Shown: piece after piece, positions 4,858 through 64,000 of the stretch
Layout of the letters: each line of letters opens with the position of its first letter
Position numbering within the stretch: the stretch's first letter is position 1
Source: a virus
DNA: 64,000 bases
IMG/VR virus record: IMGVR_UViG_3300032770_000005
Location: 32,001-96,000 of that record
Strand: one strand, 5' to 3'
Translations under genes and position numbers: made by a program
Notes under the pieces: model-generated
What the model was told of the DNA's origin: nothing
Databases searched by the model: none
What the model saw: only the letters and a program-made list of their open reading frames with translations

Positions 4858-5898
4858 GGCGCGAGGCCAGTGCGGGGGCTTCGTGCCTGCGACTACTGCG
4901 CCGCATGCCGCGCTGTGGTCCCAGCCGCCGCCGAGCGAGCCAGTGCGGGGGCCTCATGCCCGCGACATGCCAGCGCAGTGGCTTGGTGCCTGCGACGCTT
5001 GTCTCCTCGGCCGTCGGTGCCGTCAGTCGCGAGGCCAGCGCAGGGGCCTGATGCCTGCGGCCGTGTTGCGAAGCCTGCGCAGAGCCGAGTGCCTGCGACT
5101 GGCGCGTGACGAGATCGGCTCTACCTTAGGCGGTAAGCCGCGAGGCCGGCGCGGGGGCTTGGTGCTCGCGACGTGCGGTCCGAGCACGCACCGGCAACGC
5201 CTGTGTTTGCAGGGCCAGCGCGGGGGCCGAGTGCCCGCGACCCCACTTCTGCGATCCTTCGAGGCCAGCGCGAGGGCATCGTGCTCGCGACCGCGGATCC
5301 GTGCTCGCGACCGCGGATCGCGGTGAGGATCAACGAGCCCGGCCGCAGGGGGCATCGTGCCGTCGCGAAGCCAGCGCGGGGGCCGAGTGCTCGCGACGAG
5401 GTCGTGGGGTGCCCGTGCTCGTGGTCATGAAGCCAGGCCGGCGCGAGGGCTTAGTGCTTGCGACGAGAACTGTGAGCACCACGTCGGCTCAGCAGAAGGC
5501 CAGCGCGGGGGCCGTGTGCCTGCGACGGCGAGCCGGGCGCGCACCGACAGTGGACCGTCATCCGTCGCGAGAGGCCAGCGCGGGGGCCGAGTGCCCGCGA
5601 TTGTCTCGTCGCGGTCATGTTGTTGCGACGACATCATCGTTGCAGGGCCAGCGCGGGGGCCTGATGCCTGCGACTGGGCCGTTGCAGCGCGGTGCGAGTG
5701 CCTGTGTCGCGAGGCCAGCGCGAGGGCTTCGTGCTCGCGACGCAGGGTTCGCCTCCAGAAGCGCGCGGCGCGTGCTCCTCCTCGTCGCGAGGCCAGCGCA
5801 GGGGCCTGGTGCCTGCGACTGGAGATCTGCCATTGTCGTTGCCGGCGCCGTCGATGAGGCCGGAAATCACGCCAGCGCGAGGGTCTCGTGCTCGCGAC
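4858..5898 (+). CRISPR. orphan variant CRISPR array A, about 17 repeats of the Cas12m-associated family
   Basis: Repeats such as GTTGCAGGGCCAGCGCGGGGGCCTGATGCCTGCGAC (5639-5674) and GTCGCGAGGCCAGCGCGAGGGCTTCGTGCTCGCGAC (5706-5741); unique spacers from about 0 to 43 nt; local 20-nt duplication 5281-5319. Confidence 0.85.
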
Positions 5899-5956
5899 AT
5901 CACAGGAACGCGACCACGGCTTGGCGCCGAGGGGCCGGCCCGGTACGATGCGAGGC

Positions 5957-6727
5957 ATGACGACCCGCCGAGGCATGCTCTGGAAGACGCCGTGGAAGAG
6001 AGATCGCAACAAGGCGCCCCTGCCTCCCGGCGGCGAGATGGCCTTCTTCCAGAACTTCGACTCCGGCGCGAACAGTTCCGCGTACAAGAGCGTCGGCAAC
6101 ACGATGCTCGGGCAGTCGCTGCCGTTCTGGTTCGGCGCAGTGAGCGCGCAGCAGAACACGCTCACCAACTTCTTCGGCGCGGTCCCCGGCGCCGGCTTCG
6201 GCTTCTCAGCAGGGCTGCTCGGTGGCACGGCTGGCCTCGTCTCGGGCAATGCTGAGGCGGCTCCGAGCCTCGTCTCCAACGGCCAGCTCGCGGTCAGGCC
6301 TGCCGCCGGCACGATCGCGGTCGTCGCCATCCTGGCGATCGTCGAGCAGGCCGGCGCGGGCTACCGGCTCACGACGTACTTCTGTCGGCTCGGGCAGCCG
6401 ATCAAGCAGACCGTGACGCCCTACGCGCCGCCCGGCGCGACGCAGCTCGTTCTGTCCGCGAGCACCGGGCTGATCCACGGCGCAGCCGGCGGAGCCGGCG
6501 TGCCGACCGCCGCCCAGGTCCAGTCGTGGTTCCAGCAGCTGAAGCTGAACCGCGAGGTCGGGGAGATCCCCGGCCTCACGTCGCACCTCTACTCCGCTAC
6601 GAGCGTCTATCCGCTCGTGCCGGCCGTGCTACCGAACGGAGCGGGCGGCCAGAACATGGACTACACGGTGATCGCTGGCGCGCCGACACCGACCAACGTG
6701 CTGCTCGCCGTGTCGTTCCCCTGGTGA
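5957..6727 (+). CDS. hypothetical, possibly structural protein
   Basis: Strong codon usage; start at 5948 or 5957; annotated ORF start 5888 lies inside the array. Confidence 0.65.
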   Translation: MTTRRGMLWKTPWKRDRNKAPLPPGGEMAFFQNFDSGANSSAYKSVGNTMLGQSLPFWFGAVSAQQNTLTNFFGAVPGAGFGFSAGLLGGTAGLVSGNAEAAPSLVSNGQLAVRPAAGTIAVVAILAIVEQAGAGYRLTTYFCRLGQPIKQTVTPYAPPGATQLVLSASTGLIHGAAGGAGVPTAAQVQSWFQQLKLNREVGEIPGLTSHLYSATSVYPLVPAVLPNGAGGQNMDYTVIAGAPTPTNVLLAVSFPW

Positions 6728-6743
6728 ACGTGTCGGACACGTT
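6727..6743. promoter_or_regulatory. 17-bp palindrome AACGTGTC-G-GACACGTT (TGTCnGACA operator family)
   Basis: Perfect inverted repeat 15 nt upstream of the 6759 start; core recurs about 10 times in the window. Confidence 0.55.
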
Positions 6744-6758
6744 GTAGGCTGCTCGTCC

Positions 6759-7205
6759 ATGAGCAACGACGCCTTCAACCGCGGCATCTTCAGCGAGCAG
6801 AAGGGCGTGCTCGACGACGCCTTCCAGAACGCGACGGGCGTCGAGCACGCGACCGGCGATCTCAAGGAGGGCATCAGAGAGAACGTCGAGATGGGCGGCG
6901 TGCGCCTCATGAGCGACTGCAACTACTGCGGGCTCCAGTGGCGCGGCATCGTGAAGTGGCCCGAGATCGCCGGCTTCTTCACCGGTCAGCAGGTGCCGGG
7001 CACCCAAGCGATCAGACCCGGCGTGGCCAGCGCCTTCGGTTGCAGAAAATGCAACAGCGTCAACAAGTTCCTGATGCCGTGGGCGGACATCAACCGGTAC
7101 GTGGCGATGGGCGTGGAGATGGGTGCGCTGCCGCGAGACATCTACAAGGTCCGCGAGCAGATCATGGCGCAGCGCGCCGCGCAGAGATCTGCACGCGGCA
7201 GATGA
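6759..7205 (+). CDS. Zn-ribbon hypothetical protein
   Basis: CNYC...CRKC. Confidence 0.7.
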   Translation: MSNDAFNRGIFSEQKGVLDDAFQNATGVEHATGDLKEGIRENVEMGGVRLMSDCNYCGLQWRGIVKWPEIAGFFTGQQVPGTQAIRPGVASAFGCRKCNSVNKFLMPWADINRYVAMGVEMGALPRDIYKVREQIMAQRAAQRSARGR

Positions 7206-7362
7206 CCGACATGCCTGCGCAGGGCCTCGTGCCTGCGACGCACAGCGCCGTGCATCGGCCTCAATCGCGAGGCCAGCGCGAGGGCCTCATGCTCGCGACG
7301 ACCCACGCGTGCTCTACAGGCAGGGGCCGAGGCCTGCGACCAAGAAAAGCGAGGCGCATCCG

Positions 7363-7412
7363 AAAGTCTGTCCGCATGCAGAAGTCTGTCCGCATGCAGA
7401 AGTCCGTCCGCA
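7363..7412 (+). repeat. 18-nt tandem repeat (GAAGTCTGTCCGCATGCA, about 2.7 copies) inside a spacer
   Basis: Read directly. Confidence 0.85.
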
Positions 7413-7721
7413 GATCGGCAGTCGCCAGGCCAGCGCGGGGGCTTCGTGCCTGCGACTTGCAGTGGGAGATCATGTCCGCCGTTGCATGCCAGCGCAGGGG
7501 CTACCTGCCTGCGACGCCCAGGCTCCGCGCGTGTTTGAGGCCAGCACGAGGGCCTCGTGCTCGTGACTCCCGTGCGGCCAGTTCTTGCTCGCTCGCGAAC
7601 CGTCCGCTTGACGACGGACGCCCCAAGGCCAGCGCGGGGGCCGAGTGCCTGCGACTTGCAGTGTGAGCAGTGTGAGATCAGATGGCGGCGCGCATGTAGA
7701 GAGCGTGGCGGCAAACACGGC

Positions 7722-7869
7722 CGGCGAGGCCGGCCCGTGACCGAGCGAGCGGCAGCGAACGGTAGCTCATTGCATCTTCTTCCGGGGACGATGGGTGGCC
7801 GCGCTGTCGTGGCTGCGACGGAGTTGCTGCTCCGTGGTAGTCCGGCGAGATCACGGGTCGGCCTCACCG
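7722..7869 (+). ncRNA. candidate structured RNA, three-way junction on a long closing stem
   Basis: Manual pairing: 7722-7740/7851-7869, 7747-7756/7823-7832, 7761-7772/7789-7800, 7804-7810/7815-7821; G-U pairs favour the + strand. Confidence 0.45.
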
Positions 7870-8138
7870 ACCGACTGCCGATCCTGCGACGCAGATCTGA
7901 GAACGACGCGCATCACGCCAGCGCGAGGGCCGCATGCTCGCGACAAGCGCTCGAACTCTACTAAGCCAGCGCAGGGGCCGCATGCCTGCGACGAGCACGC
8001 TCGCGATGACGCTCGCCGTCGCTCGGCTCGAAAGGCCATCGCGGGGCATCGTGCCCGCGACATGTGGACGGACGAGTTTCTTTTACAAGGCCAGCGCAGG
8101 GGCCCGTGTACCTGCGACGTCTATGGAGGCTGGGCCTC

Positions 8139-8549
8139 CTAGTCGGTCCACCCAAGAGCGAGCAGGCGCCGACGCGCGACGTCTCGATACCCCTGGACCG
8201 CACCGATCGCGTAGATCAGCGTGCCGCGCTCCTTCAACGTGAGTCCGCGAGTGGCCGCGGCGGCATCCATCATCGATAGCCTGGTGATCCAGGCCTCGAA
8301 GAACACGACATCGCCTCTGCGGATGGCATCGTAGGCATCACGCTCGCTGGTGTCGTAGAGGTTCTTGCCCCAGAGAACCACGAACTGCGGCAGTCTGCTG
8401 TACGGCACCGTGTGGCCGGGGCCCCACATCGCGTCTCGCAGGTTGCGCCACTGCGACAGAAAGCCGTGTGCCGAGCGCGAGCGCTTGAGTGAGCGCGGAA
8501 CCGCGTCGATGACCTTGGGCAGGTGATAGACGCTGGGCCTGCCGCTCAT
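8139..8549 (-). CDS. hypothetical protein
   Basis: Start MSGRPSVY overlaps the stop of the phosphatase gene. Confidence 0.6.
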   Translation of the reverse strand: MSGRPSVYHLPKVIDAVPRSLKRSRSAHGFLSQWRNLRDAMWGPGHTVPYSRLPQFVVLWGKNLYDTSERDAYDAIRRGDVVFFEAWITRLSMMDAAAATRGLTLKERGTLIYAIGAVQGYRDVARRRLLALGWTD

Positions 8550-9028
8550 CGCTGGGCGAGAAGAAACTGCTCGAACATGGGGTTCGCGAGCGCCTCTTCT
8601 CCACCGCCGAGCTTGCGATGTCGGCGCACGACCGCGATCGCCTGCTGTGGCGTCCAGGTCGGGTAGAGCTGGAGCAGCGTCAGGGCGACGAGGAGGCCAG
8701 ATCTGTTCTTCCCTTGCATGCACGTCACGAGCACGCGCTTGCCGTGGCGCACAGCGCGGGCGATCTGCGCCGCGCTTTGCCAGAGCACGGGGATGACGTC
8801 GCGCGGGACGGGACGGTAGATGTCGTCGTCCATCGGCACGCGCAGGACCATCTTCCCGGCTGGCGCCACGAGCTTCGGCTGCGCTTCCATCGCCGAGTAG
8901 ACGATGACGTCGAAGAAGCTGAACAGCCGAGGGTCCGCGCCCGGGTACGCGCCCTGCGCGAGGTGATCGCGTACGATCCAGTTCCAGTCCCGGTAGCTCA
9001 CGAGCAGATGGTAGAACTTGTCCGACAC
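8546..9028 (-). CDS. dual-specificity/Cys-based protein phosphatase
   Basis: VLVTCMQGKNRS (Cx5R) plus PMDD acid loop and ANPMFEQFL. Confidence 0.88.
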   Translation of the reverse strand: MSDKFYHLLVSYRDWNWIVRDHLAQGAYPGADPRLFSFFDVIVYSAMEAQPKLVAPAGKMVLRVPMDDDIYRPVPRDVIPVLWQSAAQIARAVRHGKRVLVTCMQGKNRSGLLVALTLLQLYPTWTPQQAIAVVRRHRKLGGGEEALANPMFEQFLLAQR

Positions 9029-9052
9029 CGTCGCAACGGGTACGGTCGGGAC

Positions 9053-9976: not shown

Positions 9977-9977
9977 G

Positions 9978-15303: not shown

Positions 15304-15993
15304 GTGATCCCCACAGAGCGACTGGACGCGCTGGACCGGGCCATCGAGCGCGGGGAAGTGCTGCGCAACGACTGGGCCCGGGAACAGGATGGTCATCAGC
15401 TGGCGTGCCTGCTCGCACATCTTTCGCCAGAGGTGGCGGTGGAGAAGTCGGCGGACGCCTGCCCCGCCAAGACCCTCGACCCGTGGTTCGCGCACCTGTT
15501 GCCGTGGATCGATGACGCGTGCTCACTCGAACGACGCGACGAGTTCCTGCGTCGCACGGCGGCGGTCCTGCGGCGCTGGGACGCACTGTCAGCCGAGACG
15601 CGTTGCCGGCTCGACTACGAATGTCGCGCGATTGCGGTGCGAGAGTCGCGGCTACGTGTGTCCGCGAGCGAAGAGCAGGCGCTTGCGGCAGTCGACGGCA
15701 TGCTTGCGTTGCTAGACCGGGCGGCCGTGGGCGGTGAGGTCAGCGCGCAGGAGTGGTCGGCGGCGGCGGCGACGGCGCGGGCGGCGGCCGCACAGGAGTG
15801 GTCGGCGGCGGCGGCGGCGGCGGCCGCGCAAGTGCGGGCGGCGGCGGCGGGGGCGGCCGCGTGGGCGGCGCGGGCGGCACCGGCTTCGGCGCGGGCGGCA
15901 GCAGCGGCTTGGGCGCGGGCGGCGGCGTCCGATCGAATGATCGACCGCATGCTCACCGCCATGGAGCGCGAGTGCGCGAAGGTGACGCCATGA
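15304..15993 (+). CDS. paralog family 'MIPxERLDAL', copy 1 (Ala-rich variable segment)
   Basis: Near-identical to 15990, 20486 and 21579 copies. Confidence 0.8.
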   Translation: MIPTERLDALDRAIERGEVLRNDWAREQDGHQLACLLAHLSPEVAVEKSADACPAKTLDPWFAHLLPWIDDACSLERRDEFLRRTAAVLRRWDALSAETRCRLDYECRAIAVRESRLRVSASEEQALAAVDGMLALLDRAAVGGEVSAQEWSAAAATARAAAAQEWSAAAAAAAAQVRAAAAGAAAWAARAAPASARAAAAAWARAAASDRMIDRMLTAMERECAKVTP

Positions 15994-16673
15994 TCCCTAC
16001 GGAACGGTTGGACGCGCTGGACCGGGCCATCGAGCGCGGGGAGGTGCTGCGCAACGACTGGGCTCGGGAGCAGGACGGTCGCCAGCTCGCGTGCCTGCTC
16101 GCGCATCTTTCGCCAGAGGTGGCGGTGGAGAAGTCGGCGGACGCCTGTCCGACCAAGACGCTCGACCCGTGGTTCGCGCATCTGCTGCCGTGGATCGACG
16201 ATGCGTGCTCGCTGGAGCGCCGCGACGAGTTCTTGCGTCGCACGGCGGCAGTGCTGCGGCGCTGGGACGCGCTGTCGGCAGAGACTCGGCGGCGTCTCGA
16301 CTACGAGTGCAGGGCGATCGCGGTGCGAGAGGCGCGGCTGCACGTGTCTGCGAGCGAAGAGCAGGCGCTTGCGGCGATCGACAGCATGTTCGCGTTGCTC
16401 GACCGCGCGATCGCGGGCGGTGAGGTCAGCAAGCAGGAGTGGTCGGCGGCGGCGGCGTCGGCGCGGGCGGTGGTCGCACAGGAGTGGTCGGCGCCGGCGG
16501 CGGGGGCGGCAGCGGCCGCGCAAGTGCGGGCGGCGGCGGCGCGTGCGGCACAGCTGGCGACTGAGGCGGTGTTGGCGCCCGAGGTGGCGGCTCAGGCGAT
16601 GGCGTCCGATCGCATGATCGACCAGATGCTCTCCGCCATGGAGCGCGAGTGCGCGAAGGCGGCGGTGACATGA
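15990..16673 (+). CDS. paralog family 'MIPxERLDAL', copy 2
   Basis: Tandem duplicate of 15304-15993. Confidence 0.8.
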   Translation: MIPTERLDALDRAIERGEVLRNDWAREQDGRQLACLLAHLSPEVAVEKSADACPTKTLDPWFAHLLPWIDDACSLERRDEFLRRTAAVLRRWDALSAETRRRLDYECRAIAVREARLHVSASEEQALAAIDSMFALLDRAIAGGEVSKQEWSAAAASARAVVAQEWSAPAAGAAAAAQVRAAAARAAQLATEAVLAPEVAAQAMASDRMIDQMLSAMERECAKAAVT

Positions 16674-17145: not shown

Positions 17146-17532
17146 ATGGGTAAGAAGGTGTTCGTGGGCGGTCTGCCTTGGGCGATCGACGATCAAGAGC
17201 TGGCGAACGTGTTCAAGCAGGTCGGTGCGGTCGTCGAAGCGAAGGTCATCACCGACCGCGAGACCGGCCGGTCCCGTGGGTTCGGGTTCGTGACGTTCGC
17301 GAGCGAAGATGCGGTGCCGCTCGCCATCAAGGAGTTCGACGGCGCCGAGCTGCAAGGTCGCAGGATCAACGTCAACGAGGCGCAGGAGCGCTCGGGCGGT
17401 GGTGGCGGCCCACGGCACTCCGGCGGCGGGGGCGGCCATCAGCAGGCGCCGCGTGGCGGAAACAGCGGCGGCGGGCGCCGCGATCGCGACGAGGGTCGCC
17501 GCGGCCGACGGCGCGAGCACGACGACTGGTAG
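17146..17532 (+). CDS. RRM (RNP-1) RNA-binding protein with Gly-rich tail
   Basis: KVFVGGL (RNP2), RSRGFGFVTF (RNP1), GRRINVNEA. Confidence 0.95.
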   Translation: MGKKVFVGGLPWAIDDQELANVFKQVGAVVEAKVITDRETGRSRGFGFVTFASEDAVPLAIKEFDGAELQGRRINVNEAQERSGGGGGPRHSGGGGGHQQAPRGGNSGGGRRDRDEGRRGRRREHDDW

Positions 17533-20235: not shown

Positions 20236-20489
20236 TGGCGATGTCTCTCGTCGAGCGCGTTCGCAGGTTCAAGAACACGACCGGCACGTGCTCGTGGGGC
20301 GGCGCGCACGCAGGGCTCCATCCGGATGCGTGCGTCTGCAATCGAGAACCGGATGCGTATCCGGGGACGCCGCACACGCACTACGATGAGCCGCCGCACG
20401 AGTGTGCGCGCTGCGGGTGCACGGCGTACCAGCCGTGGCTCACGCTCGACTTCGTCATCCCGGGTCTGACCGTGGAGCCTACGACATGA
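20235..20489 (+). CDS. Cys/His-rich small protein
   Basis: HECARCGCTAY. Confidence 0.55.
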   Translation: MAMSLVERVRRFKNTTGTCSWGGAHAGLHPDACVCNREPDAYPGTPHTHYDEPPHECARCGCTAYQPWLTLDFVIPGLTVEPTT

Positions 20490-21265
20490 TTCCGCTCGAA
20501 CGCCTCGATGCCCTTGATGCCGCGATCGAGCGCGGGGAAGTGCTGCGTGGTGAGTGGACTTGCGAGGAGGACGGGCGCCAGCTGGCGTGTCTGCTCGCGC
20601 ATGTCTCGCCTGAGGTGGCGACGGCGAAGTCGGTGTCCGCCTGCCCCGCCAAAACGCTCGACCCGTGGTTCGCGCATCTGCTGCTGTACATCGACGATGA
20701 GTGCTCGCTCGAACGTCGCGACGAGTTCCTGCGACGCACGGCAGCAGTGCTACGGCAGTGGCACCGGCTATCCACGGAGACGCGCCGGCGGCTCGACTAC
20801 GAATGCAGAGCGGTTGCGGTCCGTGAGGTGAGGCCACACGTGCCGCTGAGCGAGGCGCAGATGATTGTGGCGATCGACAGCGCCCTCTTGCTGATTGCCA
20901 GAGCATGCGCAGGCGAGGTACTCAGCGAGCAGGAAGGGGAGGCGGTGCGCTGTTCGTTGTTCGCCGTAGACGAGGCGATGCAGTTGGCAGCGACGGCGGC
21001 GGTCCGGTCGGTGGCAGCTAGCGCGTTGCCGTGGGCAGAGCGAGCGGTGTGGTCGTCGTCGTCGACGGTGGATCCCGCGGCAGCTGCGAATGCTGCGCGA
21101 GCGGCAACGCGAGCGGTGGTGGCATTCGCGTTCGATGTGCTGGAGCCGGCAGGCTCGGCGGCGGCGGTCGCGGCGTGGACTGCGTCCGCAGAGGCGTCCG
21201 CAGATCGAATGATCAACCAGATGCTCTCCGCCATGGAGCGGGAGTGCGCGAAGGTGGCGGCGTGA
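20486..21265 (+). CDS. paralog family 'MIPxERLDAL', copy 3
   Basis: Conserved N-half and DRMINQMLSAMERECAKV end. Confidence 0.8.
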   Translation: MIPLERLDALDAAIERGEVLRGEWTCEEDGRQLACLLAHVSPEVATAKSVSACPAKTLDPWFAHLLLYIDDECSLERRDEFLRRTAAVLRQWHRLSTETRRRLDYECRAVAVREVRPHVPLSEAQMIVAIDSALLLIARACAGEVLSEQEGEAVRCSLFAVDEAMQLAATAAVRSVAASALPWAERAVWSSSSTVDPAAAANAARAATRAVVAFAFDVLEPAGSAAAVAAWTASAEASADRMINQMLSAMERECAKVAA

Positions 21266-21582
21266 TCTCCGTGGTCGACGTCGCAACGGAGAAGGAGTTC
21301 CTCGACCGCGCGACGGCCGCCGGCACTACGGTCCACGTTCTTCGGACCACCGCGGTTGCTCCTGTGCCGCTCGGAGGCGGGACAGTGCTCCTGCGTTCTG
21401 CCATCGCGCTCCAGTACTCGTTCGAGACCCATTCCGAGAACGGTGATACGCGGTGGGTGTATCGCGAGCGCTGCGTCGCGGATGAGCATGGCATCGTGGA
21501 CCTCTCGAACGTTTTGCTCACGCGGATCGCGGACGCAGGCGTTCCTACGGTCGTGTTCACGCAGCGCAGCGGGTCGCTATGA
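21262..21582 (+). CDS. hypothetical protein
   Basis: Coupled at both ends. Confidence 0.6.
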   Translation: MISVVDVATEKEFLDRATAAGTTVHVLRTTAVAPVPLGGGTVLLRSAIALQYSFETHSENGDTRWVYRERCVADEHGIVDLSNVLLTRIADAGVPTVVFTQRSGSL

Positions 21583-22385
21583 TTCCGGTCGAACGCCTCG
21601 ACGCCCTTGATGCCGCGATCGAGCGCGATGAGGTGCCGCTTGCATGGAAGAAAGAGCAGGGCGGACGGGTACTCTTGTCCTTCCTCGCTCACCTTTCTCC
21701 GGTGTTTGCGGCGCAACCGTCTTGGGGGCTCCTGACGAGCCGACCCGGCGACTCGTTCTACTACGGCTTGGTCGAGGGGACGCTCGACCCGTGGCTTGCT
21801 GAGCTACTTGAGTGGATCACGCGTACCGGCTCGCCTGAGCGGCGCGACCGCGTTCTGCGTCGCACGGCGGCAGTGCTGCGGCGCTGGGACGCGCTGTCGG
21901 CAGAGACGCGACGCCAGCTCGACTACGAGTGCAGGGCGATCGTGGTGCGCGAGGCTAGACAGCACGTACCGGAGAGTGAAGAGCGCTCGCTCGCGGCGAT
22001 CGACAACGTGCTCGCGTTGCTCGATCGCGCGATCGCTGGTGGCGAGGTCGGCGAGCGGGAGTGGTCGGCGGTGGAGGCGAGCGGGATTGCAGAGGCGCAG
22101 GCATTGAGCGCACGAGGGGGGAGCGTTCGCGCGCGAGGAGGGGACATTCATGACATTCGCGTAGCGTGGCAGGCTACACAGGCCGCATACGTTGCGTGCG
22201 AGCGGTTGCCAAGGGCCGCCAAGTACGCAGTGTATCGTGCAGTAGATGCGGCGCCGTTGACACTGGTACCGCGGCCGCCTGACGGGACACATTGGTACTT
22301 TTATGCACAATGTGTAGTTGCCGACCGGATCATAGACCAGATGCTCACCGCCATGGAGCGCGAATGCGCGAAGGTGACGACATGA
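21579..22385 (+). CDS. paralog family 'MIPxERLDAL', copy 4 (divergent lower-GC variable segment)
   Basis: Same framework; segment about 22090-22320 is AT-richer. Confidence 0.75.
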   Translation: MIPVERLDALDAAIERDEVPLAWKKEQGGRVLLSFLAHLSPVFAAQPSWGLLTSRPGDSFYYGLVEGTLDPWLAELLEWITRTGSPERRDRVLRRTAAVLRRWDALSAETRRQLDYECRAIVVREARQHVPESEERSLAAIDNVLALLDRAIAGGEVGEREWSAVEASGIAEAQALSARGGSVRARGGDIHDIRVAWQATQAAYVACERLPRAAKYAVYRAVDAAPLTLVPRPPDGTHWYFYAQCVVADRIIDQMLTAMERECAKVTT

Positions 22386-24921: not shown

Positions 24922-25352
24922 TGAACGCGCCCGACATGACGTCCCTCTCGCGCCGAGATCGCGCCGCCATCTTGCTGGCGTTGACGTGGATTCGCGTCAC
25001 GCCTGGTCGCGGTGGCGGTCCGCTGCTGGCGCGGGAGCAGGCGTGCGAAGCGCTGCGGATGGGAGGCAAGGGGGCGAAGGCGATCGCTGAGGCCGTGGCC
25101 AGCGCGAACTCGGAACTGGCGTCCGAGATGGCACGCAACGGCGACTTGTCATCGGAGGCACGCTATCTGGACGTGCTCGCCACGAACCGGCGGCTGGTCC
25201 GCGCCCGCCTCGCGCTCTTCCTGCGGACCGTCGTGCGCGTTGACGACGACGATTACGGATGTTGGGACGGAGACCGCGGTGGATGGTTGCCGCGGCCGTA
25301 TCATGCTCTCTGGGAATCCGCACCACCGCATCGAAAGAAGGTCAGCCAATGA
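24921..25352 (+). CDS. hypothetical protein directly upstream of cas12
   Basis: TGATG start; stop overlaps the cas12 ATG. Confidence 0.6.
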   Translation: MNAPDMTSLSRRDRAAILLALTWIRVTPGRGGGPLLAREQACEALRMGGKGAKAIAEAVASANSELASEMARNGDLSSEARYLDVLATNRRLVRARLALFLRTVVRVDDDDYGCWDGDRGGWLPRPYHALWESAPPHRKKVSQ

Positions 25353-47891: not shown

Positions 47892-48107
47892 GTCGCAGGC
47901 ACCCCTGCGGTTCGCGGGCACATTCGGAAGCGGGCTGGTCACCATGTCGCGAGCACGAGGCCCCCGCGCTGGCCAGACGCGCGCCGCGCCGGGCGTCACG
48001 TAGTCGACGTGTCGCGAGTACCAAGCCCTCGCGCTGGCTTCCGACCACGAGAGACGGGTCCACTACGTCCTCGACGCGAGCACGAAGCCCTCGCGCTGGC
48101 TTCGCCC
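47892..48107 (-). CRISPR. orphan mini-array D in reverse orientation, 3 repeats plus 2 remnants
   Basis: Reverse-complement repeats at 47946-47974, 48011-48045, 48073-48107; remnants at 47892 and 47912. Confidence 0.75.
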
Positions 48108-48108
48108 C

Positions 48109-48580
48109 GAGCCGCCGTCTCGACTACGAGTGCCGCACGATCGTGGTGCGAGAGGCGCGGCTACACGTGCCCGCGAGCGAAGAGCAGGCCCTCGCGGCGA
48201 TCGACAACATGCTCGCGTTGCTCGACCGGGCGGCTGCGGGTGGCGAAGTCAGCGCACAGGAGTGGTCGGCCGCGATGGGCGCATCGCGCCGCGTGCAAGC
48301 GGTGACGTATGCGGCAGCGACGTATGCGGTAGCGGCGGCGGCGGAGACCGCGGACTGGTCGTGGTCGTGGTCGTCGAGGTCGTGGTCGTCGACGGAGGTA
48401 GTGGCGCCGCCGTGGGGGGCGTGGTGGGCGGCGATGCGGGAAGCGGCGTGGGCGGCGTGGGCGGCGCGACCGGCGCGGGCGACCGCGGAGGCGGCGGTGA
48501 AGCGGGCACCTGAGGACCGGATGATCGACCAGATGCTCTCGGCGATGGAGCGCGAAGTGCGCGCGCATGTGAGGCCCTAG
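48109..48580 (+). pseudogene. 5'-truncated fifth copy of the 'MIPxERLDAL' family
   Basis: RRLDYECRTIVVREARLHVPASEEQ...DRMIDQMLSAMERE; N-half replaced by array D. Confidence 0.7.
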
Positions 48581-52833: not shown

Positions 52834-53051
52834 CGTGCAGGACTCCCGAGACGTTCGAGGATCTGATGCGACGAGCGCGCAGGTTCATCGACAGGCGGCC
52901 TGTCGAACTGCCGCGGCCCAAGCCGTGGGCCTCGGAACAGGTGCCGCGGCCGACGCCATGGGCCTCGGAACAGGTGCCGCGGCCCAAGCCGTGGGCCGCG
53001 GAGCACTGCGACTGTGGTCGACGACGAGAGCACGACGAGGGCGGACGATGA
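52830..53051 (+). CDS. small protein with 11-aa tandem repeat PRPKPWASEQV
   Basis: 33-nt tandem repeat about 52909-52997. Confidence 0.5.
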   Translation: MTCRTPETFEDLMRRARRFIDRRPVELPRPKPWASEQVPRPTPWASEQVPRPKPWAAEHCDCGRRREHDEGGR

Positions 53052-53208
53052 GCGCACGTACTCAATGGAGGTACATCGCCTGGACGCGCTCTCTGCACTA
53101 TGGAGAGCCATTCCGCGCGTGGCTGCTACGCACGTCGAACCGGCTCGATCGACAGGAAGGCCCGCCATCGCTCGTATGCCGTGTGCTCGATCGTCTCGCG
53201 GGGTGGCC

Positions 53209-54423
53209 ATGACCGCTCGTACCCTCATCGACCGTGACGCGGTGGTCGCGAGGCTTCGACAGCGTGCCGAGGCCGCCGAGCGCGCAGGCCGGCACCAGTC
53301 CGGGCCACACATGATGCCGGAGCACTGGCTCCGCGAAGAGGCCGCCGCTATCGAGCGCGAGCCAGCCGCGTCGGTGCCACCAGCGAGCATCCCGGAGCGC
53401 GAGCGAGCGCTGGTGCGGGAGATGTTCAACGAAGTAGTCGAATTCTGCGCGGAGCTGTACGGCGCGTCGCCAGACGGCTTGAGCGACGAAGATGTTGCGC
53501 GAATCGTCGCTCGGGTGGACGCCACACATCCGCACTCCGAACCAAGGCCAGCGCGGGGGCTTGGTGCCTGCGACGGAGCATCTCCGGCCGCCGCGCCGAA
53601 GGTGTCGTGCAGCAAGTGCCTCGGAACGCGGCGCGTGCTCGACTGTCGAGGTAACGACGACGATCGGTGCCCATGGTGCGCCGACCCGAAGCCCGTGCCG
53701 AGCGGGTTGCGGGAGTGGTTCTCGCGCGTGCTGGACGCTGCTGCCGAGCGTGGGCTCGTCGTCTCGTCGGATGAGCGTGGCATCACCGAGGCGCTCGCCA
53801 GCGTCGGCCTGCCGCCCACCGAGCCCGTGCCGAGCGCGTTGGAGTCGGCGTGCGCGTTCTTGCAAGAGCACAGGCAACAGGTGCGCGAGATCGCATCTGC
53901 CGGCGACGGCACATCGTGGTCCGCTGAGGTTGGTGCGACCAGCTACGGACGGGCGCCGACGCTCACGGGATGCCTGTTCGCCACGGCGCGCTCCCTCGGT
54001 TGGATGCCACCCACGGAACCCAGCCAGAACCCGTTGGAGCGCGCGATGGTGCGTCACGACGCCATCGCACATCAGGCTGACGTGCTCATCGCTCGGTACG
54101 ATGAGCGAGAGCGGTGCGCGAAGGCGTGCGATGAAGCGGCCGACAGGCGCGAAGGAACGTCGCAGGATTTCTGCGTCTCCGCTCTGCGCAATCTCGCCGC
54201 CTGCATCCGCTCGCTCGGTCCCGCCGCGCCGGCGCCGCGCGCGGAAGAGGTGGCGAACATCATGACGAAGCTGATCGTGAAGAAGCTGCGCGAAGAAGTG
54301 CGCGTGCTCCGCGAGCACGAGCGCACGACGCCGAACGAACACCATGCGCTCAAGGCATGTGGTGCAGCGGATGCGTTCGAAGAACTGGCCGCCCGCATCG
54401 AGCGCGAAGGGAGCTGGCGATGA
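53209..54423 (+). CDS. mosaic hypothetical protein containing an in-frame CRISPR repeat
   Basis: Modules shared with neighbours; CSKC/CPWC finger; repeat at 53546-53574. Confidence 0.6.
   Translation: MTARTLIDRDAVVARLRQRAEAAERAGRHQSGPHMMPEHWLREEAAAIEREPAASVPPASIPERERALVREMFNEVVEFCAELYGASPDGLSDEDVARIVARVDATHPHSEPRPARGLGACDGASPAAAPKVSCSKCLGTRRVLDCRGNDDDRCPWCADPKPVPSGLREWFSRVLDAAAERGLVVSSDERGITEALASVGLPPTEPVPSALESACAFLQEHRQQVREIASAGDGTSWSAEVGATSYGRAPTLTGCLFATARSLGWMPPTEPSQNPLERAMVRHDAIAHQADVLIARYDERERCAKACDEAADRREGTSQDFCVSALRNLAACIRSLGPAAPAPRAEEVANIMTKLIVKKLREEVRVLREHERTTPNEHHALKACGAADAFEELAARIEREGSWR
53546..53574 (+). repeat. solo CRISPR repeat core inside a CDS
   Basis: GGCCAGCGCGGGGGCTTGGTGCCTGCGAC. 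Confidence 0.85.
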
Positions 54424-57837: not shown

Positions 57838-58923
57838 GTGACCAAGCTCTCCAAGAAGCCCACGTATCTAGGATGTAAACAGGGTCCCACACTCAGTCAC
57901 GTTCGTACGGAGCCATGGGTATGCCGGCGGTGTGGAAAACAGGCATGCGCGCGCTGTGTCAAGCACTTTTGGAAGAGTTTAGGCGGTCACACCGAGCCAG
58001 AAGCCTCCGGGGGTTGGAGATTCGTGGGCCAACGAGTGGCCACATGCGCAACGTGTTCGCATGAGCTTGCGCAGACCAAGAAGACGATACGTAGCAACGT
58101 GCTCCTCGCCAAGCCGCCGAGAGTCGTCCATCGCCTCATCGACACGCGCGGCTTCCGACGTCTGTTCGGCCGAGCACCACGCGACTCCGACTACGAGGGC
58201 GTGCACACGACGGGCAGTCGGCTGATCGCCGGCGCGTACGCGATGAGCAGCTGGCACGACCCCCGCAGCTATCCCCGCGGCTACCCAGTCATCGTCACGC
58301 TCGACGTGAGCGGGCTCAAGCCGCTGCCCGACGTCGACGCCCTGCTCTTCGGCGCCCAGGCCGTCGCCGACCTCTTGCCGCAGTACCGCGAACGCGCCGC
58401 CGCCGGTGAGACCTTCTACGCGATGCTGAACGACGACGACTTCTCCGAGGCCGAGGTCCAGGTCGGCGACGATCCCGCCGCCTTCATCTTCGAGGACGTC
58501 GGTACGCATGTGCTGAACGCTATCGATGGGGAGCGAGACCCAGAAGCGGTGTTCCGGGAGTTCCTCAAGACCGGCGCGCTGCCCGACAGCGTGCTCACGC
58601 GTCTGGTCGATCAGCAGCGCTATCTCGACGACTTCGACCTCGACCGCGTCGTACGCGTCGAAGCGCTGCGTCCGTGGTGGCACGAGGTGCTGCACGCTGA
58701 TGACGAGATGATTCCGGCGATCGAACGGAGCGGCTACACGGTCTTCACGATCGATGACTGGCCGTTCACCGCTGTCGGCCCGACCAAGACGGTGTGGCAG
58801 GCGCCGGACGCCGAGGCGCGCGAGGACGTCGAGTACCACGGAACGACGAGCATCGTGATCTCGCTGGCGTTCCCTGGGCTCATCCCCGAGAAGTCGCCGT
58901 TTCCGATCGAGCAAGACGAATGA
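57838..58923 (+). CDS. Cys-rich N-terminal domain plus putative circularly permuted ART-fold domain
   Basis: CRRC/CARC/CATC; GVHTT..AGAYA..PVIVTLDV near the start, YHGTT..GLIP at the end. Confidence 0.55.
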   Translation: MTKLSKKPTYLGCKQGPTLSHVRTEPWVCRRCGKQACARCVKHFWKSLGGHTEPEASGGWRFVGQRVATCATCSHELAQTKKTIRSNVLLAKPPRVVHRLIDTRGFRRLFGRAPRDSDYEGVHTTGSRLIAGAYAMSSWHDPRSYPRGYPVIVTLDVSGLKPLPDVDALLFGAQAVADLLPQYRERAAAGETFYAMLNDDDFSEAEVQVGDDPAAFIFEDVGTHVLNAIDGERDPEAVFREFLKTGALPDSVLTRLVDQQRYLDDFDLDRVVRVEALRPWWHEVLHADDEMIPAIERSGYTVFTIDDWPFTAVGPTKTVWQAPDAEAREDVEYHGTTSIVISLAFPGLIPEKSPFPIEQDE

Positions 58924-59480
58924 CCGGGCGACGAGGCGACCCGTCGTACACGCCGCCGACCGACGAGGAGCGACGCCTCGGCTACTACCTCGACTGCGTC
59001 AGCTGCGGCCGCCCGTGGGCGCTGCGCAGCTGCGTGCCGCACTTGCATCGCTGCCGCTCCTGCGCTCGCTCGTGGTGGCGCGACTACCGCCAGGCGGCGC
59101 GCCAAGGGCTGCCGCGGCCGAGCCTGCTAGGGCAGATCGCGCCGCATCCCTTCGCCTCGAAGGCGCTGAACCGCACGGTCGATCTGAACGCTCCGGGGCT
59201 CCTCGACCTGGTCGAGCAGGACCCGAAGTTCGCGAAGGAGCTGGACGCGTACATCGCCAGCCTGCGGCACGCCGACAGCAGCAAGCCGCCGCTGCGCGGC
59301 GCGGCCCTGAGCCTATCGGGACGGCCGCGTCGCCGCGCCGTGCGCGTGCCGCTCGATGAAGACCCTACGCCCGAGCCGCCCATCTCCCGAGCGGCAGCCA
59401 AGGAGGTCGAGCGCCTGGTCGACGAGGTGCTCGTCGGCGACGTGATCGATGCCGGAGCGGTGCCGCGTCGGCGCGCGTGA
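58920..59480 (+). CDS. Zn-finger hypothetical protein
   Basis: CVSC..CRSC. Confidence 0.6.
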   Translation: MTGRRGDPSYTPPTDEERRLGYYLDCVSCGRPWALRSCVPHLHRCRSCARSWWRDYRQAARQGLPRPSLLGQIAPHPFASKALNRTVDLNAPGLLDLVEQDPKFAKELDAYIASLRHADSSKPPLRGAALSLSGRPRRRAVRVPLDEDPTPEPPISRAAAKEVERLVDEVLVGDVIDAGAVPRRRA

Positions 59481-59705
59481 GAGGCCTGCGCGGGGGCATG
59501 GTGCTCGCGACGCGCTCGCGACGAACCACGAGAGCCGGCGACGCGCCCATCCCGAAGCCAGCGCGGGGGCTTCGTGCCTGCGACTCGTGACGGAAGTTTC
59601 TCGTGGCTGACCTGTTGCATTCTGTCGAAAGGCCAGCGCGGAGGCTCTCATGTCCGCGACATGCAGTTCCACGACTGAGCCAGCGCGAGGGCTTGTGCTC
59701 GCGAC
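59476..59705 (+). CRISPR. orphan mini-array E, 4 repeats
   Basis: Repeat ends at 59511, 59584, 59660, 59705. Confidence 0.78.
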
Positions 59706-59778
59706 GGTGTCACGTTCACTGGCGCTTCTGCGACGCGATGCCCGCTAGCCGACGTCCGGCGCCCATGCGACGATCGCG

Positions 59779-61133: not shown

Positions 61134-62454
61134 GGACGCGCAGCTGCAACTCGTGGGCGATGCCCTCCTCCGGTTCGCGGCGGAGTTCCCTGGTCGCGTC
61201 TTCACGAACGCGTACACATGGGTCTGGGGCGCCGGCAGATACGTCTCCATCCATGGCGCGCTCGTGGGCAGCGCACGCAAGGTCGCCGCCTACTTCGGTC
61301 ACATGGCGACCATGAACGAGGAGCACGAGTTCGGCATGAGCGGCCAGGTGCTCGATCACATCGCTCGCCGCGTGTTCGGCGCCGACGCCGACATCTTCCG
61401 GTACGAGCGCCGTGTGCACCTAGCAGAGTTCCTCCAGCGCCTGGCGAACCTGATGCCGGAGGAGGCGACGCTGACCTTCATCCCCGACGGCGGCTACCCG
61501 TGGCCCGTCGATCGGTACTGGAACGCACGGCTTGAGCGGTTCGTGCGGCCCAAGGAGCCCGCGGGGCTGATCCACGTGCCGTCGCGCGAAAACCCGACCA
61601 AGACCGAGCTGGGGCTCGATCCGTGCACGGTGTTCGAGGCAGATCGCGATACGCCGGTCTCTCCGTACGACCCGGTGATGGGCAGCCTTGGCGGCGATCC
61701 TCTCATGGCCGCGCACTCGATGGACCTCCACGAAGGGCCCACCATGGCCAACGCACCGAAGATTCGGCAATGCGGTGGTCTGCTGTTCCCGTCGCTCTCG
61801 GTCGGTCCGGTCCCGGCCTCGAACTTCGGCCACGCATGCCTCGTGGCTCGCCTCAGCCTGGTGCTCGACGGCCTCAAGCCCTACCGCAAGCGCGGGACTG
61901 AAGAGCAGGTCTGGATCTACCCGACCGACGTGTGGACTGGCACCGTGACGCAGTTCATGACCTCGATGGCCAGCGACCTGTTCGACGAGCTGCACGGTCA
62001 CGCCGACTACGTCTACGGGCATGGCCTGACGGTGCTGGGGATCCCGGCGGTCGAGTACGGCGGTCCTTCCGGCGGTGCGGAGGCGTTCGACTCGACGAGC
62101 CAGCTCAAGCGGACCCTCAAGAAGCGCATGGTGCGATGGATGCGGGTCTGCAACGAGCGCGAGTTCGAGGAACTGGCGCACGAACTCGGCGGCACGGGGG
62201 CGTACTACGCCTACTGCGAGGCGAAGGGGCGAACGGTCGTCTCGCTGAGCGAGTTCCCGTACCTGATCGTACCGGACTGGATGCGCGACAAGGCGGAGCA
62301 CTGGGCGCAAGCGGCGGGGTTCGAGGGGCAGATCGTAGCGCCGCAGTGGCCGTACACGCTCGACAGGGGCGGCGGAAGCTGGGACATGTGGCAGTGGGCT
62401 CTGAAGGTGAGCGAGACCGTCGCCGGTCTACGCCCGGTCGTGGAGGTGCGCTGA
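61114..62454 (+). CDS. hypothetical protein with a module reminiscent of large polyvalent proteins
   Basis: GGLLFPSLSV..FG..LV..IY..DVWT and YCEAK.R.V..SEF motifs (recalled similarity only). Confidence 0.5.
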   Translation: MSKTETEDAQLQLVGDALLRFAAEFPGRVFTNAYTWVWGAGRYVSIHGALVGSARKVAAYFGHMATMNEEHEFGMSGQVLDHIARRVFGADADIFRYERRVHLAEFLQRLANLMPEEATLTFIPDGGYPWPVDRYWNARLERFVRPKEPAGLIHVPSRENPTKTELGLDPCTVFEADRDTPVSPYDPVMGSLGGDPLMAAHSMDLHEGPTMANAPKIRQCGGLLFPSLSVGPVPASNFGHACLVARLSLVLDGLKPYRKRGTEEQVWIYPTDVWTGTVTQFMTSMASDLFDELHGHADYVYGHGLTVLGIPAVEYGGPSGGAEAFDSTSQLKRTLKKRMVRWMRVCNEREFEELAHELGGTGAYYAYCEAKGRTVVSLSEFPYLIVPDWMRDKAEHWAQAAGFEGQIVAPQWPYTLDRGGGSWDMWQWALKVSETVAGLRPVVEVR

Positions 62455-63890
62455 TGTTGCTGCAAGACGCTACGTCGGAACGGGAGGTCGAGGAAGTGCT
62501 GGCCGGCGCGCGTGGCGACGAGGAAGCCGCCGAGCTGCGGACCGACATCGAGACCGAGCTGGACTACGCCATGCGGCGGTTCGACGAGCACTTCTACAAG
62601 TACGTCGAGCCATCTGAGCCGACGGAGCTGCGGGACTTCGTGCAAGACAACGATGGATTCATCGACGAGCTAATCAGCGACAGCGCGCAGACCACGTACG
62701 ACCTATCGATCGTCCCGCGTGAGGACGTGGTCACCGCGGTGCGCTGGGAGGTGACGTCGCGACGGTCCTCATACAAGCATAGGTTTGGGATCTTCGAGTT
62801 GGGCGAGCCGCGAGACGTCGACGCATCGGGCTTCAGCTACGACATGCCCACCGAAGCGAACGTCGTCTTTCCCGACAGGCTCCTGCCGACCAACTACGAG
62901 TTCGTGCCACGCGAGATGGCGACGGAGTTCTGGAAGGGCATTGCGCATGACCACGACATCGAGTGGTACGGCGACACGGACCGGTTGGGTGACAACCAGG
63001 GCTCGATGCCGGGCGAGCCGCTCCGTATCGGCGTCGCGGAAGATCGCTTCGAGGAGTGGTGCCGCGACCTGATCGCCGAGCACGCGAACAAGATCGCAGA
63101 GCAGCATCCGGACCAGCTCATCGAGATGTTCTGGACTCGGCTCCGTCAATCCGATGTCCGGATGGCAGCCGAGTTCAAGGCGATGCAGCCGCGGCGGGAG
63201 GACGTGCTCGACCTGGCCGTGCAGTGGATCAGCGGCAACCACGACGATGTCGCCGAGGAGATCGCGCAGTACCTCGACTCGGCCAAGGAGCGCGGGGAGG
63301 CAGAGAAAGCGGAGTACGAGCCCGTCGACTCGCTCCTGACCGGCGAGCCCATCGTGCTCAACGACGACGTGCTGCGGCAGCTGGGCGTCACGAGCGGCGT
63401 GTTCTGGGAGGAGCGCCCGTGGCACCTCGTGAGGCTCGAAGCGCGTGACCTAGGTCGCGAGGGCCGGCAGATGCGGCACTGCGTCGGCGACAAGGGCATG
63501 GGCTACATCCGTGCGCTCAACAACGGCGAGATCGAAGTCTGGTCTCTGCGCTCCCGCGACGACAAGCCGCGGTTCACGCTCCAGGTCGACGCGTCGTTCT
63601 TCGCGAAGGGCGCGACGCCAGAGACGCGCGGCAAGGCGATCCAACAGGTCAAGGGCAAGGCGAACCGGGTGCCGGGCTATGCCGACGCGTACGGCCGCTC
63701 GGGGAACGTGAAGTTCCCGGAGGAGATCGTCATCTGGAGCTGGATCTTCGAGCAGCTCATGGTCGATCCGCTCGTCGTCGAAGACTTCAAGGGCTACAAG
63801 GCGCTTCCCTCGCGTGCTACGCCGCTCGCGTCGAACATGACTGGCCAGCAGTGCGTGGGCTTCGATCTGCCGTACCGACCGCTGCGATGA
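62454..63890 (+). CDS. acidic protein with C-terminal PcfJ-like domain
   Basis: LGREGRQMRHCVG, VWSLR...PRFTLQV, QVKGKAN. Confidence 0.75.
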   Translation: MLLQDATSEREVEEVLAGARGDEEAAELRTDIETELDYAMRRFDEHFYKYVEPSEPTELRDFVQDNDGFIDELISDSAQTTYDLSIVPREDVVTAVRWEVTSRRSSYKHRFGIFELGEPRDVDASGFSYDMPTEANVVFPDRLLPTNYEFVPREMATEFWKGIAHDHDIEWYGDTDRLGDNQGSMPGEPLRIGVAEDRFEEWCRDLIAEHANKIAEQHPDQLIEMFWTRLRQSDVRMAAEFKAMQPRREDVLDLAVQWISGNHDDVAEEIAQYLDSAKERGEAEKAEYEPVDSLLTGEPIVLNDDVLRQLGVTSGVFWEERPWHLVRLEARDLGREGRQMRHCVGDKGMGYIRALNNGEIEVWSLRSRDDKPRFTLQVDASFFAKGATPETRGKAIQQVKGKANRVPGYADAYGRSGNVKFPEEIVIWSWIFEQLMVDPLVVEDFKGYKALPSRATPLASNMTGQQCVGFDLPYRPLR

Positions 63891-63925
63891 CGGCCGTTGG
63901 CATGTGAGCAGTGCAGGTGCTATCG

Positions 63926-64000
63926 CAGCATGCGCCAGCGCGAGGGCCTGGTGCTCGCGACCAGGCCTGAAGAGCCCTGCGGTCACGAAGCCTGCGCAGG
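63926..64000 (+). CRISPR. start of orphan array F (cut by the window end)
   Basis: GCCAGCGCGAGGGCCTGGTGCTCGCGAC ending at 63961, second repeat from about 63982. Confidence 0.7.

Follow-up and report, generated by a model that had tools for sequence, protein, structure and literature searches.

The window analysed here is a 64,000-nt stretch (positions 32,001–96,000) of the virus record IMGVR_UViG_3300032770_000005, whose total length is 152,857 bp; coordinates marked "genome" refer to the whole record and all others to the window. Contigs from the source samples are in ENA (ERZ27256499) and SRA (SRR8881745). The gene cas12m-B (25349–27214, a gene call of 621 aa with the longest frame starting at 25259), which closes a long plus-strand operon in the window, encodes a true Cas12m protein, as the original prediction of a Cas12m-like effector had proposed. 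Its product aligns with the PDB Cas12m structure 23vw across residues 37–598 (E 1.2e-67) and with Cas12m2 (8hhl, E 2.6e-27), and it bears a Cas12f1-like TNB domain scoring above the Pfam cut-off. With about 600 aa, a RuvC domain, and a TNB zinc finger, the protein has the features of the Cas12m clade. Within the window, cas12m-B is indeed the only cas gene. The notion of a single effector holds for the window but not for the genome, which has two paralogs with two repeat families: cas12m-A, located outside the window (genome 8790–10550), encodes a protein of 586 aa, 46% identical to that of cas12m-B, and is accompanied by three family-A repeats (genome 10551–10585, 11124–11159, and 11211–11246), each paralog thus being adjoined by a repeat family of its own (A or B). 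The RuvC D-E-D residues are present in both proteins; the D-E-D Cas12m proteins assayed in PMC11013384 nevertheless left DNA uncut. The adaptation genes cas1 and cas2 were looked for, and none were found. Beyond the window, a hybrid cluster on the minus strand (genome 100441–100588) is composed of family-A, family-B, and family-A repeats, in that order.

A regular CRISPR array (27234–28206, plus strand) directly follows cas12m-B, with the first repeat located 20 nt past the stop codon. It comprises 14 repeats with a period of 73–76 nt; the five leader-proximal repeats are identical, while the distal ones have diverged. An array of about 36-nt repeats adjoining the effector gene is the type V-M arrangement. 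A sister array of 20 repeats lies on the minus strand outside the window (genome 105824–107209, corresponding to 73824–75209 on the window scale).

The 36-nt repeat forms one family, of which covariance model R1 detects 88 copies in 13 clusters across the whole 152,857-bp record and none in shuffled sequence. Inside the window, 56 of the 88 copies are found at eight sites, which agrees with the 55–60 copies at eight sites reported initially, and the observation of scattered repeats is thereby confirmed. A gapless weight matrix gives 79 copies in the genome against 0–1 in shuffled sequence, and this count stays at 79 for each threshold from 8 to 15 bits, the lowest real score being 21; with the covariance model, a small tail of indel-bearing copies blurs the otherwise clean separation of scores. 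Extension of the scan to the full replicon, together with a hunt for paralogs, added to the initial picture five further clusters beyond the window, the second cas12m gene, and the second repeat family. Two clusters are regular arrays with the usual leader polarity; the 11 others, which consist of the same repeat, hold about 60% of the copies and lie at distances from the effector gene that reach about 48 kb. The clusters occupy gaps between genes at thirteen places, with the exception of some copies located in frame within genes.

The orphan cluster S1 (4858–5898, plus strand) lies between two plus-strand genes, begins 20 nt past the stop codon at 4838, and contains 16 copies with irregular spacing (30–111). 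It also carries a 20-nt tandem duplication. S2 (7205–8118, plus strand, 10 copies) begins at the stop codon of the gene 6759–7205 and has a convergent gene downstream. S4 (40624–40937, plus strand) is a compact cluster of six copies with core-to-core distances of 48–71, beginning 5 nt past the stop codon at 40618. S5 (47892–48108, minus strand), which includes three copies (47946–48108) and remnants extending to about 47892, is anti-oriented to its plus-strand neighbours. S6 is a single plus-strand copy (53539–53574) lying in frame, as 12 codons, within the open frame 53014–54423. In S7 (59476–59705, plus strand, four copies), the stop codon of the gene 58794–59480 falls inside the 5′ part of the first repeat. 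S8a starts at 63926 on the plus strand, 35 nt past the stop codon of the PcfJ-like gene directly upstream (61932–63890, plus strand), and continues past the window end at 64000 to genome 96167, two of its four copies being located before the window end. Beyond the window, there are a single minus-strand copy (genome 96197–96232) situated 21 nt past the stop codon of a convergent gene and two clusters, S10 (genome 103761–104022, five copies) and S11 (genome 104365–104552, three copies), that flank a gene encoding a 94-aa protein (genome 104082–104366).

Six arrays had been described as starting close behind the stop codon of a co-oriented gene, and all six do so within 36 nt, the gaps being 20, 0, 20, 5, −5, and 35 nt. 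Repeats share the orientation of the flanking genes at 17 of the 19 informative tandem junctions, and copies placed 0–40 nt behind stop codons occur both in this record and in unrelated viruses. Some single repeats are directly followed by a ribosome-binding site and a start codon. A scan of the region 3800–8700 for sigma-70 promoters and terminators gave nothing above shuffles. PHROG searches with 20 proteins matched only helicases, an ATPase, an HNH protein, and a glycosyltransferase, and no close relatives of the virus were found via the protein encoded at 5957–6727. A related scaffold of 166 kb is present in ENA.

The observation that orphan copies lose 7–8 nt at the 5′ end of the repeat and keep about 28 nt at the 3′ end is borne out by the alignment: agreement with the consensus is 54% at positions 1–8 and 96% at the non-covarying positions 9–36 of the core, whose conservation is partly by construction since the copies were found via a core match. 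Within the core, columns 14–19 and 29–34 form a 6-bp stem in which pairing holds for 98.6% of cells; double-sided changes number 33 and G-U cells 34, and none of 500 shuffles reaches this level. G-U pairs function solely in RNA of the given strand. An outer helix between positions 1–8 and 29–36 was rejected, its pairing being no better than in shuffles. Folding energies of single repeats are no better than those of GC-matched shuffles, and thus only covariation counts as structural evidence. Because the divergence is position-dependent and compensatory, it differs from the neutral, position-independent decay that the original prediction had named as its counter-case.

The Cas12m2 structure has a disordered crRNA segment at positions −36 to −30, places the 3′ arm of the stem at −8 to −3, and shows 17 bp of the guide being read (PMC10442227), while GoCas12m reads 18 bp; Cas12m proteins process their own pre-crRNA without tracrRNA (PMC11013384). 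Set against the text of PMC10442227, the viral repeat has the type V-M scaffold, with a 6-bp stem in the 3′ part and a dispensable 5′ stretch of 7 nt. What the orphan copies keep is exactly the 28-nt scaffold that Cas12m binds in the solved Cas12m2 complex, and what they lose is the segment without order in that complex.

Shortened spacers, also noted at the outset, are common outside the two regular arrays, where they measure 12–31 nt between the 36-nt frames. The spacing is bimodal, with modes at about 73 and about 48 nt, and 3 of about 118 spacings fall between 28 and 44. Units are not shortened below about 48 nt, equal to a 28-nt handle plus a guide of about 20 nt, and guide lengths stop at about 18–20 nt, matching the length read by Cas12m. 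The spacing minimum fits a floor set by guide length.

The spacers carry the periodicity of captured coding DNA. In the regular arrays, codon periodicity amounts to 0.43 versus 0.24 in shuffled sequence (p 8e-10), and the orphan spacers are intermediate (0.33 versus 0.27, p 0.02). The only target-like match overall concerns the S1 spacer 5312–5346 (plus strand), which agrees at 31 of 35 positions with genome 104248–104282, inside the virus's own 94-aa gene outside the window. The match begins at the first base past the repeat end; positions 1 and 6 are among the four mismatches, of which three alter the encoded residue. No homologs of the 94-aa gene were found among 5.8 billion proteins. Within the virus, 18-nt guides with up to two mismatches yielded three non-repeat matches versus two in the control, and the lack of an excess of self-matches leaves regulation of the element's own genes without support. 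The proposal that host or competitor genes are targeted found no backing in the searches made: for the spacers tried, there were no targets in G001–G004 (four other records with the same repeat family), none in GenBank phages or IMG/VR, and none in JGI metagenomes for codon-degenerate patterns of two spacers. With no protospacer found, no PAM is inferable. Moreover, setting repression against classical immunity draws no real contrast, since Cas12m immunity already consists of silencing by binding.

Model R1 proved too specific for use across other Cas12m viruses (matches in only 8 of 50 other Cas12m virus records) and was replaced by per-genome cores for eight complete genomes. IMG/VR contains 79 Cas12m contigs. 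Scattering, that is, the presence of cognate repeats at more than one locus, was observed in 8 of the 13 Cas12m viruses examined, mostly unrelated, which marks it as a trait of the system rather than of a single genome. The same repeat layout is seen in unrelated viruses whose only common gene with the studied virus is cas12m.

The scattered layout suggests that guide RNAs are supplied by many viral operons. The reading that we prefer, with a probability of roughly 45%, is a distributed type V-M guide system, a function deduced from sequence features; the guide network proposed in the original prediction is thus partly supported, while its stage specificity is purely speculative. According to this reading, every cluster would be co-transcribed with its upstream gene, and the conserved 28-nt hairpin module would be recognised by Cas12m, which would cut just 5′ of the module and retain the handle plus about 18–38 nt of the following sequence as a guide. 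Matching PAM-flanked DNA would then be silenced by Cas12m binding without cutting, the likeliest targets being related viruses that act as competitors, or mobile elements of other kinds. Older units would be trimmed to the smallest working unit, a 28-nt handle with a guide of about 20 nt, and the hybrid A-B-A cluster may serve both effectors. Several points count against such a guide system: the searches made for protospacers found none, the core conservation partly reflects how copies were ascertained, some copies would make poor guide genes (a repeat followed by a ribosome-binding site and start codon, as well as in-frame copies), and S5 is anti-oriented; in addition, abutment to stop codons may simply mark the places where a packed genome tolerates insertions.

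If the scattered units are working guides, surveys limited to cas-adjacent arrays miss most virus-borne Cas12m guides. The virus would then possess a natural, compact, non-cutting RNA-guided repressor fed by many operons, with two orthogonal effector/repeat pairs in one genome, a layout that is the goal of synthetic-biology work on Cas12m circuits, and the 48-nt units would represent a natural minimal crRNA gene. An integrated element in a cultured strain, Actinomadura sp. K4S16 (NBRC 110471), carries repeats of the same family in 48-nt units and is suited to testing scattered guides. A wider scenario is rather tentative: Cas12m viruses may have an operon-embedded guide programme in which minimal crRNA genes behind many viral genes let every transcription unit supply guides of its own, in the studied virus for two orthogonal effectors and with one mixed cassette. 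This programme may exist together with, or be replaced by, cutting or masking of viral messages by Cas12m at single repeats, with the repeat acting as a general RNA address tag throughout the viral genome and the arrays being compacted to the size of a mature crRNA.

It is also conceivable, although unlikely, that the scattered repeats are docking or cutting sites for Cas12m on viral mRNAs, where the protein would divide polycistronic transcripts, stabilise them, or govern how the next gene is translated, with the downstream sequence not being a DNA guide. The single copies in G003 and G004 that follow a stop codon and precede the ribosome-binding site or the start of the gene downstream, the family-A copy in the same position behind cas12m-A, the in-frame copies within genes, and the guides without targets in the searches made would all be in keeping with such a role. 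However, the sharp lower limit of about 18–20 nt between cores is not predicted by it, clusters of up to 16 units exceed the needs of a processing site, the spacers have the periodicity of captured coding DNA, and one of them nearly matches a gene elsewhere.

Even less probable is that the orphan clusters are non-functional debris, that is, fragments of old arrays spread by repeat recombination, decaying, and tolerated only in intergenic gaps. Several observations fit such an origin. Ahead of the largest array, that of 20 repeats, lies a remnant (genome 107210–107398) made up of the 3′ end of cas12m-B, frame-shifted, and the leader; the remnant and the first repeat make up a 227-nt stretch that is 83% identical to genome 59044–59269. 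One compact cassette is common to two loci, S7 59636–59706 being identical at 69 of 71 positions to genome 106239–106309 (minus strand) in the 20-repeat array. The tandem duplication in S1, the diverged repeats and shortened spacers, the failure of the searches made to find targets, and the ascertainment of copies via the core are likewise what debris would give. Debris would not be expected to show compensatory stem changes via G-U pairs with unpaired combinations almost absent, matrix scores that stand cleanly apart from the background except for the small indel tail, or deletions that halt at about 48 nt; nor would it explain co-orientation at 17/19 junctions or the recurrence of the layout in unrelated viruses that have only cas12m in common.

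The weakest alternative, that the repeats are RNA decoys or hijacking guides of the Racr or Cracr type titrating or reprogramming the Cas12m of a host or a rival element, draws on the establishment of viral solitary repeat units as RNA anti-CRISPRs (PMC10651486), on reports that multiplexed crRNA-like arrays of viruses reprogram the Cas proteins of hosts (bioRxiv 10.1101/2024.10.29.618823), and on the presence of the same repeat core in Cas12m loci of several bacterial phyla, but is quite improbable since the virus encodes its own cognate Cas12m in two versions, each beside its own repeat family, so that decoys would titrate the virus's own protein instead of mimicking a host system and relying on host Cas, and since the Actinomadura element, which had seemed effector-less, has a Cas12m-like frame and an array just outside the provirus call.

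Among known systems, the distributed guide system preferred here shares with type V-M Cas12m (MmCas12m2, GoCas12m, and MsCas12m; PMC10442227, PMC11013384) an effector of roughly 600 aa that is similar in sequence over its full length, a 36-nt repeat in which the 6-bp stem has its 3′ arm at −8 to −3, an array directly behind the gene, and the absence of adaptation genes. The dispensable 7–8 nt at the 5′ end of the repeat match the 5′ portion of the crRNA that is disordered in the bound state. Self-processing and PAM-dependent silencing by DNA binding without cleavage are predicted for the viral Cas12m. Unlike in Cas12m2, the 5′ arm of the stem is shifted by one position, and unlike the type V-M systems described, the present one is virus-encoded, has two paralogs in a single genome, each with a separate repeat family, and keeps most of its repeats dispersed, with many units compacted to about 48 nt. 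A second likeness is to viral solitary repeat units, mini-arrays, and crRNA-like RNAs, which comprise a few degenerate repeats away from cas genes, are sometimes multiplexed, and have short guides that repress rather than cleave (PMC10651486; bioRxiv 10.1101/2024.10.29.618823; bioRxiv 10.1101/2023.03.03.530964). They make use of an effector supplied by the host, and their targets are cas, toxin, or defence promoters. The studied virus encodes the effector itself and has about ninety copies, and the searches made gave no target of this kind.

REP/BIME elements and in-frame Rickettsia palindromic elements, which are intergenic hairpin repeats of bacteria, are short GC-rich hairpins that follow stop codons in operons, are oriented with transcription, form clusters, and occasionally lie in frame within genes. 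Y1 transposases mobilise them, and they lack a cognate RNA-guided protein beside a regular array. The viral repeats are similar to them as short GC-rich hairpins and in their placement after stop codons, orientation with transcription, clustering, and occasional in-frame copies, but their clusters are direct repeats with CRISPR-like spacing, and a cognate protein adjoins the regular array. No match to PF01797, indicative of a Y1 (HUH) transposase of the TnpA or RAYT type, was found in the 152,857-bp record, while the same search was positive in 6 of 14 control genomes; such an enzyme might be encoded by the host.

The MV-1 myxophage has been reported to encode a Cas12m of 610 aa with D-E-D residues and an adjacent array, with cas1/2/4 absent and no spacer targets found; a single effector and a single array with eight spacers are described (bioRxiv 10.64898/2026.09.14.751636). 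Scattered copies, a second paralog, and compact units, all present in the studied virus, are not mentioned for MV-1. Record G001, which shares only cas12m with the studied virus and has a 610-aa frame and an array of about ten repeats with the same repeat core, looks like the MV-1 Cas12m locus.

The effector gene of the window, cas12m-B (25349-27214), is a 621-aa frame in the public gene call and carries a TNB zinc-finger domain; it matches a solved Cas12m over nearly the full length (E 1.2e-67) as well as Cas12m2 (E 2.6e-27). A second Cas12m paralog, cas12m-A, lies upstream of the window (genome 8790-10550, as numbered on the whole record), and its 586-aa product is 46% identical to cas12m-B. 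Both paralogs retain the RuvC-site residues D, E and D, and Cas12m proteins with D-E-D still bind DNA without cutting it (PMC11013384). Profiles of Cas1, Cas2 and the Y1 transposase have no match in the whole virus record. cas12m-A has its own repeat family (A), distinct from family B, the main 36-nt repeat with a 28-nt 3′ core: one copy lies after the cas12m-A stop codon, ahead of the ribosome-binding site of the gene that follows, and another two lie behind that gene. At a distance of 90 kb from these repeats, a hybrid cluster (genome 100441-100588, minus strand) sits directly behind a stop codon in one intergenic gap, with two family-A copies flanking one of family B.

A covariance model (R1), which includes indel-bearing copies, detects 88 repeat copies genome-wide, all within genome 36.8-107.2 kb as 13 clusters, and none in the left replication block or the long right minus-strand block. 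The original prediction that one repeat family occupies eight sites holds, as 56 of the 88 copies fall in the window, all at those eight places. Two clusters are regular arrays, one of 14 repeats (27234-28206) and the largest, of 20 repeats, outside the window (genome 105824-107209, minus strand); in both, the leader-end repeats are near-identical and the far-end ones diverged. The rest are orphan clusters. Ahead of the largest array, a 227-nt stretch with a frame shift has 83% identity to the final 170 nt of cas12m-B plus the 20-nt leader and first repeat; this array is thus a copy of the effector-array junction from which the gene has been lost. A compact cassette of two cores separated by 18 nt, at 59636-59706, shares 69 of 71 positions with the large array on the opposite strand, the differences being confined to a loop. 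Repeat units thus do move from one locus to another. Inside the orphan array S1 (4858-5898), a perfect 20-nt tandem duplication covers a repeat end and the first spacer bases (5281-5320).

A 6-bp stem joins columns 14-19 to columns 29-34; over 78 aligned copies, 69 of them distinct, 98.6% of its cells are paired. Changes on both sides are found in four of the six pairs (33 cells), with G-U intermediates in the two variable ones; these pairing values were reached by none of 500 shuffles, and slid registers collapse. Because G-U pairs form only in RNA of the repeat strand, the constraint acts on the transcript of that strand. An alternative helix joining the two repeat ends is unsupported by the pairing analysis. 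Outside the two regular arrays, the consensus is matched at 54% for positions 1-8 against 96% for non-covarying core positions, a contrast partly built in by the use of the core to find copies; the loop is free to vary in orphan copies. This anatomy maps onto the crRNA of the Cas12m2 complex, where the 3′ arm of a 6-bp stem lies at -8 to -3, 17 bp of the guide are read, and positions -36 to -30 are disordered (PMC10442227). Orphan copies thus retain the part that is held by the protein and lose the unheld part.

The same repeat core is present in four other IMG/VR records (G001-G004), which have essentially only cas12m in common with this virus; three of the four bear scattered copies. One of these three is integrated in Actinomadura sp. 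K4S16, whose genome has a Cas12m-like frame, divergent and interrupted by one in-frame TAG, together with an adjacent array of 48-nt units, about 5 kb beyond the IMG/VR provirus boundary (NZ_BDDE01000028, G005:C28:92347-96511); the provirus call probably truncates the element. Sequence anatomy, selection on the RNA stem, placement and recurrence are matters of observation, and a distributed type V-M guide system is their best-supported explanation, with a probability of roughly 0.45. In such a system the clusters would be transcribed, processed and loaded, presumably with targets and a timing.

Core-to-core distances in this genome and three of G001-G004 (G004 has single copies only) are bimodal, with modes at ~73 nt (36-nt repeat and 37-nt spacer) and ~48 nt (28-nt core and ~20 nt); only 3 of ~118 fall in the range of 28 to 44 nt. 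Units of 48 nt, each with a unique 20-nt insert, make up almost all of the Actinomadura element. GoCas12m reads an 18-bp guide (PMC11013384). We infer that deletions trim the dispensable spacer tail and the start of the repeat that follows, halting where any further loss would destroy a working guide. Cas12m sites on viral messages that act independently of any guide are a rival reading, which we consider unlikely beside units trimmed to guide length.

As had been noted from the sequence alone, six window clusters start -5 to 35 nt from the stop codon of the upstream gene. Clusters at convergent gene ends are necessarily co-oriented with that gene, which leaves tandem junctions and intragenic copies as the informative cases: five are co-oriented in this virus and one is not (S5, 47946-48108, minus strand), and with the other viruses added the count is 17 against 2 (one-sided binomial ~4e-4, our own count). 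S5 adjoins, in anti-orientation, a fragment of a multi-copy gene family (15304-16673, 20486-22385, 48113-48580) that also has four full tandem or near-tandem paralogs, and occupies the place of the fragment's 5′ part. Stop-codon abutment may just show where a packed genome tolerates insertions. That the orphan clusters are non-functional debris is rather doubtful: a weight matrix of the 28-nt core finds 79 copies genome-wide versus 0-1 in shuffled sequence at all thresholds of 8-15 bits, and real scores so clearly set apart from background speak against a graded series of decaying copies. A single copy at 53539-53574 lies in phase with a larger open frame, of which it forms 12 codons, and an 865-aa frame of G004 holds two copies in that same reading phase (41250-41285, 42939-42974), both within a repeated peptide motif of the protein.

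Regular-array spacers have a three-base periodicity of 0.43, equal to that of coding fragments (0.24 when shuffled, p 8e-10); those of the orphan clusters fall in between (0.33 vs. 0.27, p 0.02). In one S1 spacer, 31 of the first 35 nt, beginning at the repeat end, match a 94-aa gene of the virus itself (genome 104082-104366), and three of the four differences alter the amino acid, suggesting that the spacer was captured from a diverged homolog; no homolog of this gene occurs in a collection of 5.8 billion proteins. The other spacers tried had no target in G001-G004, GenBank phages, IMG/VR or, for two spacers, JGI metagenomes, and showed no excess of matches to the virus itself; no PAM was inferable.

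Cas12m relatives are encoded on 79 IMG/VR contigs (loci L049-L127). When eight complete Cas12m viruses, selected for completeness alone, were each scanned with their own repeat core, cognate copies appeared at more than one locus in four (up to 38 copies, four sites), with no hits in shuffled sequences. Decoys or hijackers directed at another Cas12m are an improbable account of the scattered repeats of the present virus. A Cas12m carried by a phage next to its array has been described before, MV-1 being presented as the first phage Cas12m (2026 preprint, 10.64898/2026.09.14.751636), as are viral solitary repeats and mini-arrays (PMC10651486; bioRxiv 10.1101/2024.10.29.618823). The literature searched holds no description of scattering on this scale or its recurrence across unrelated Cas12m viruses, of a single genome with two orthogonal effector/repeat pairs and a mixed cassette, of unit compaction to ~48 nt, or of in-frame repeat copies within genes.

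The window corresponds to bases 32001-96000 of one IMG/VR virus record. This 152,857-bp record (G+C 68%) is rated complete by CheckV; an ENA assembly contains the same contig, and a Logan assembly a part of it. Identifiable virus genes include those for helicases, an ATPase, an HNH protein and glycosyltransferases; no tailed-phage hallmark among the queries used was recognised, and ten large proteins encoded in the minus-strand block to the right of the window (genome 108-146 kb) had no match in a PHROG search. The long plus-strand operon with cas12m-B as its last gene also encodes a 128-aa protein with RRM_1/RRM_7 domains (17146-17532, public gene call), an RNA-binding protein unusual for a bacterial virus, which could be relevant to RNA handling here. 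At the left extremity of the record (genome 1-428), ~17 tandem copies of a 24-nt unit may represent a terminal structure or an assembly artefact.
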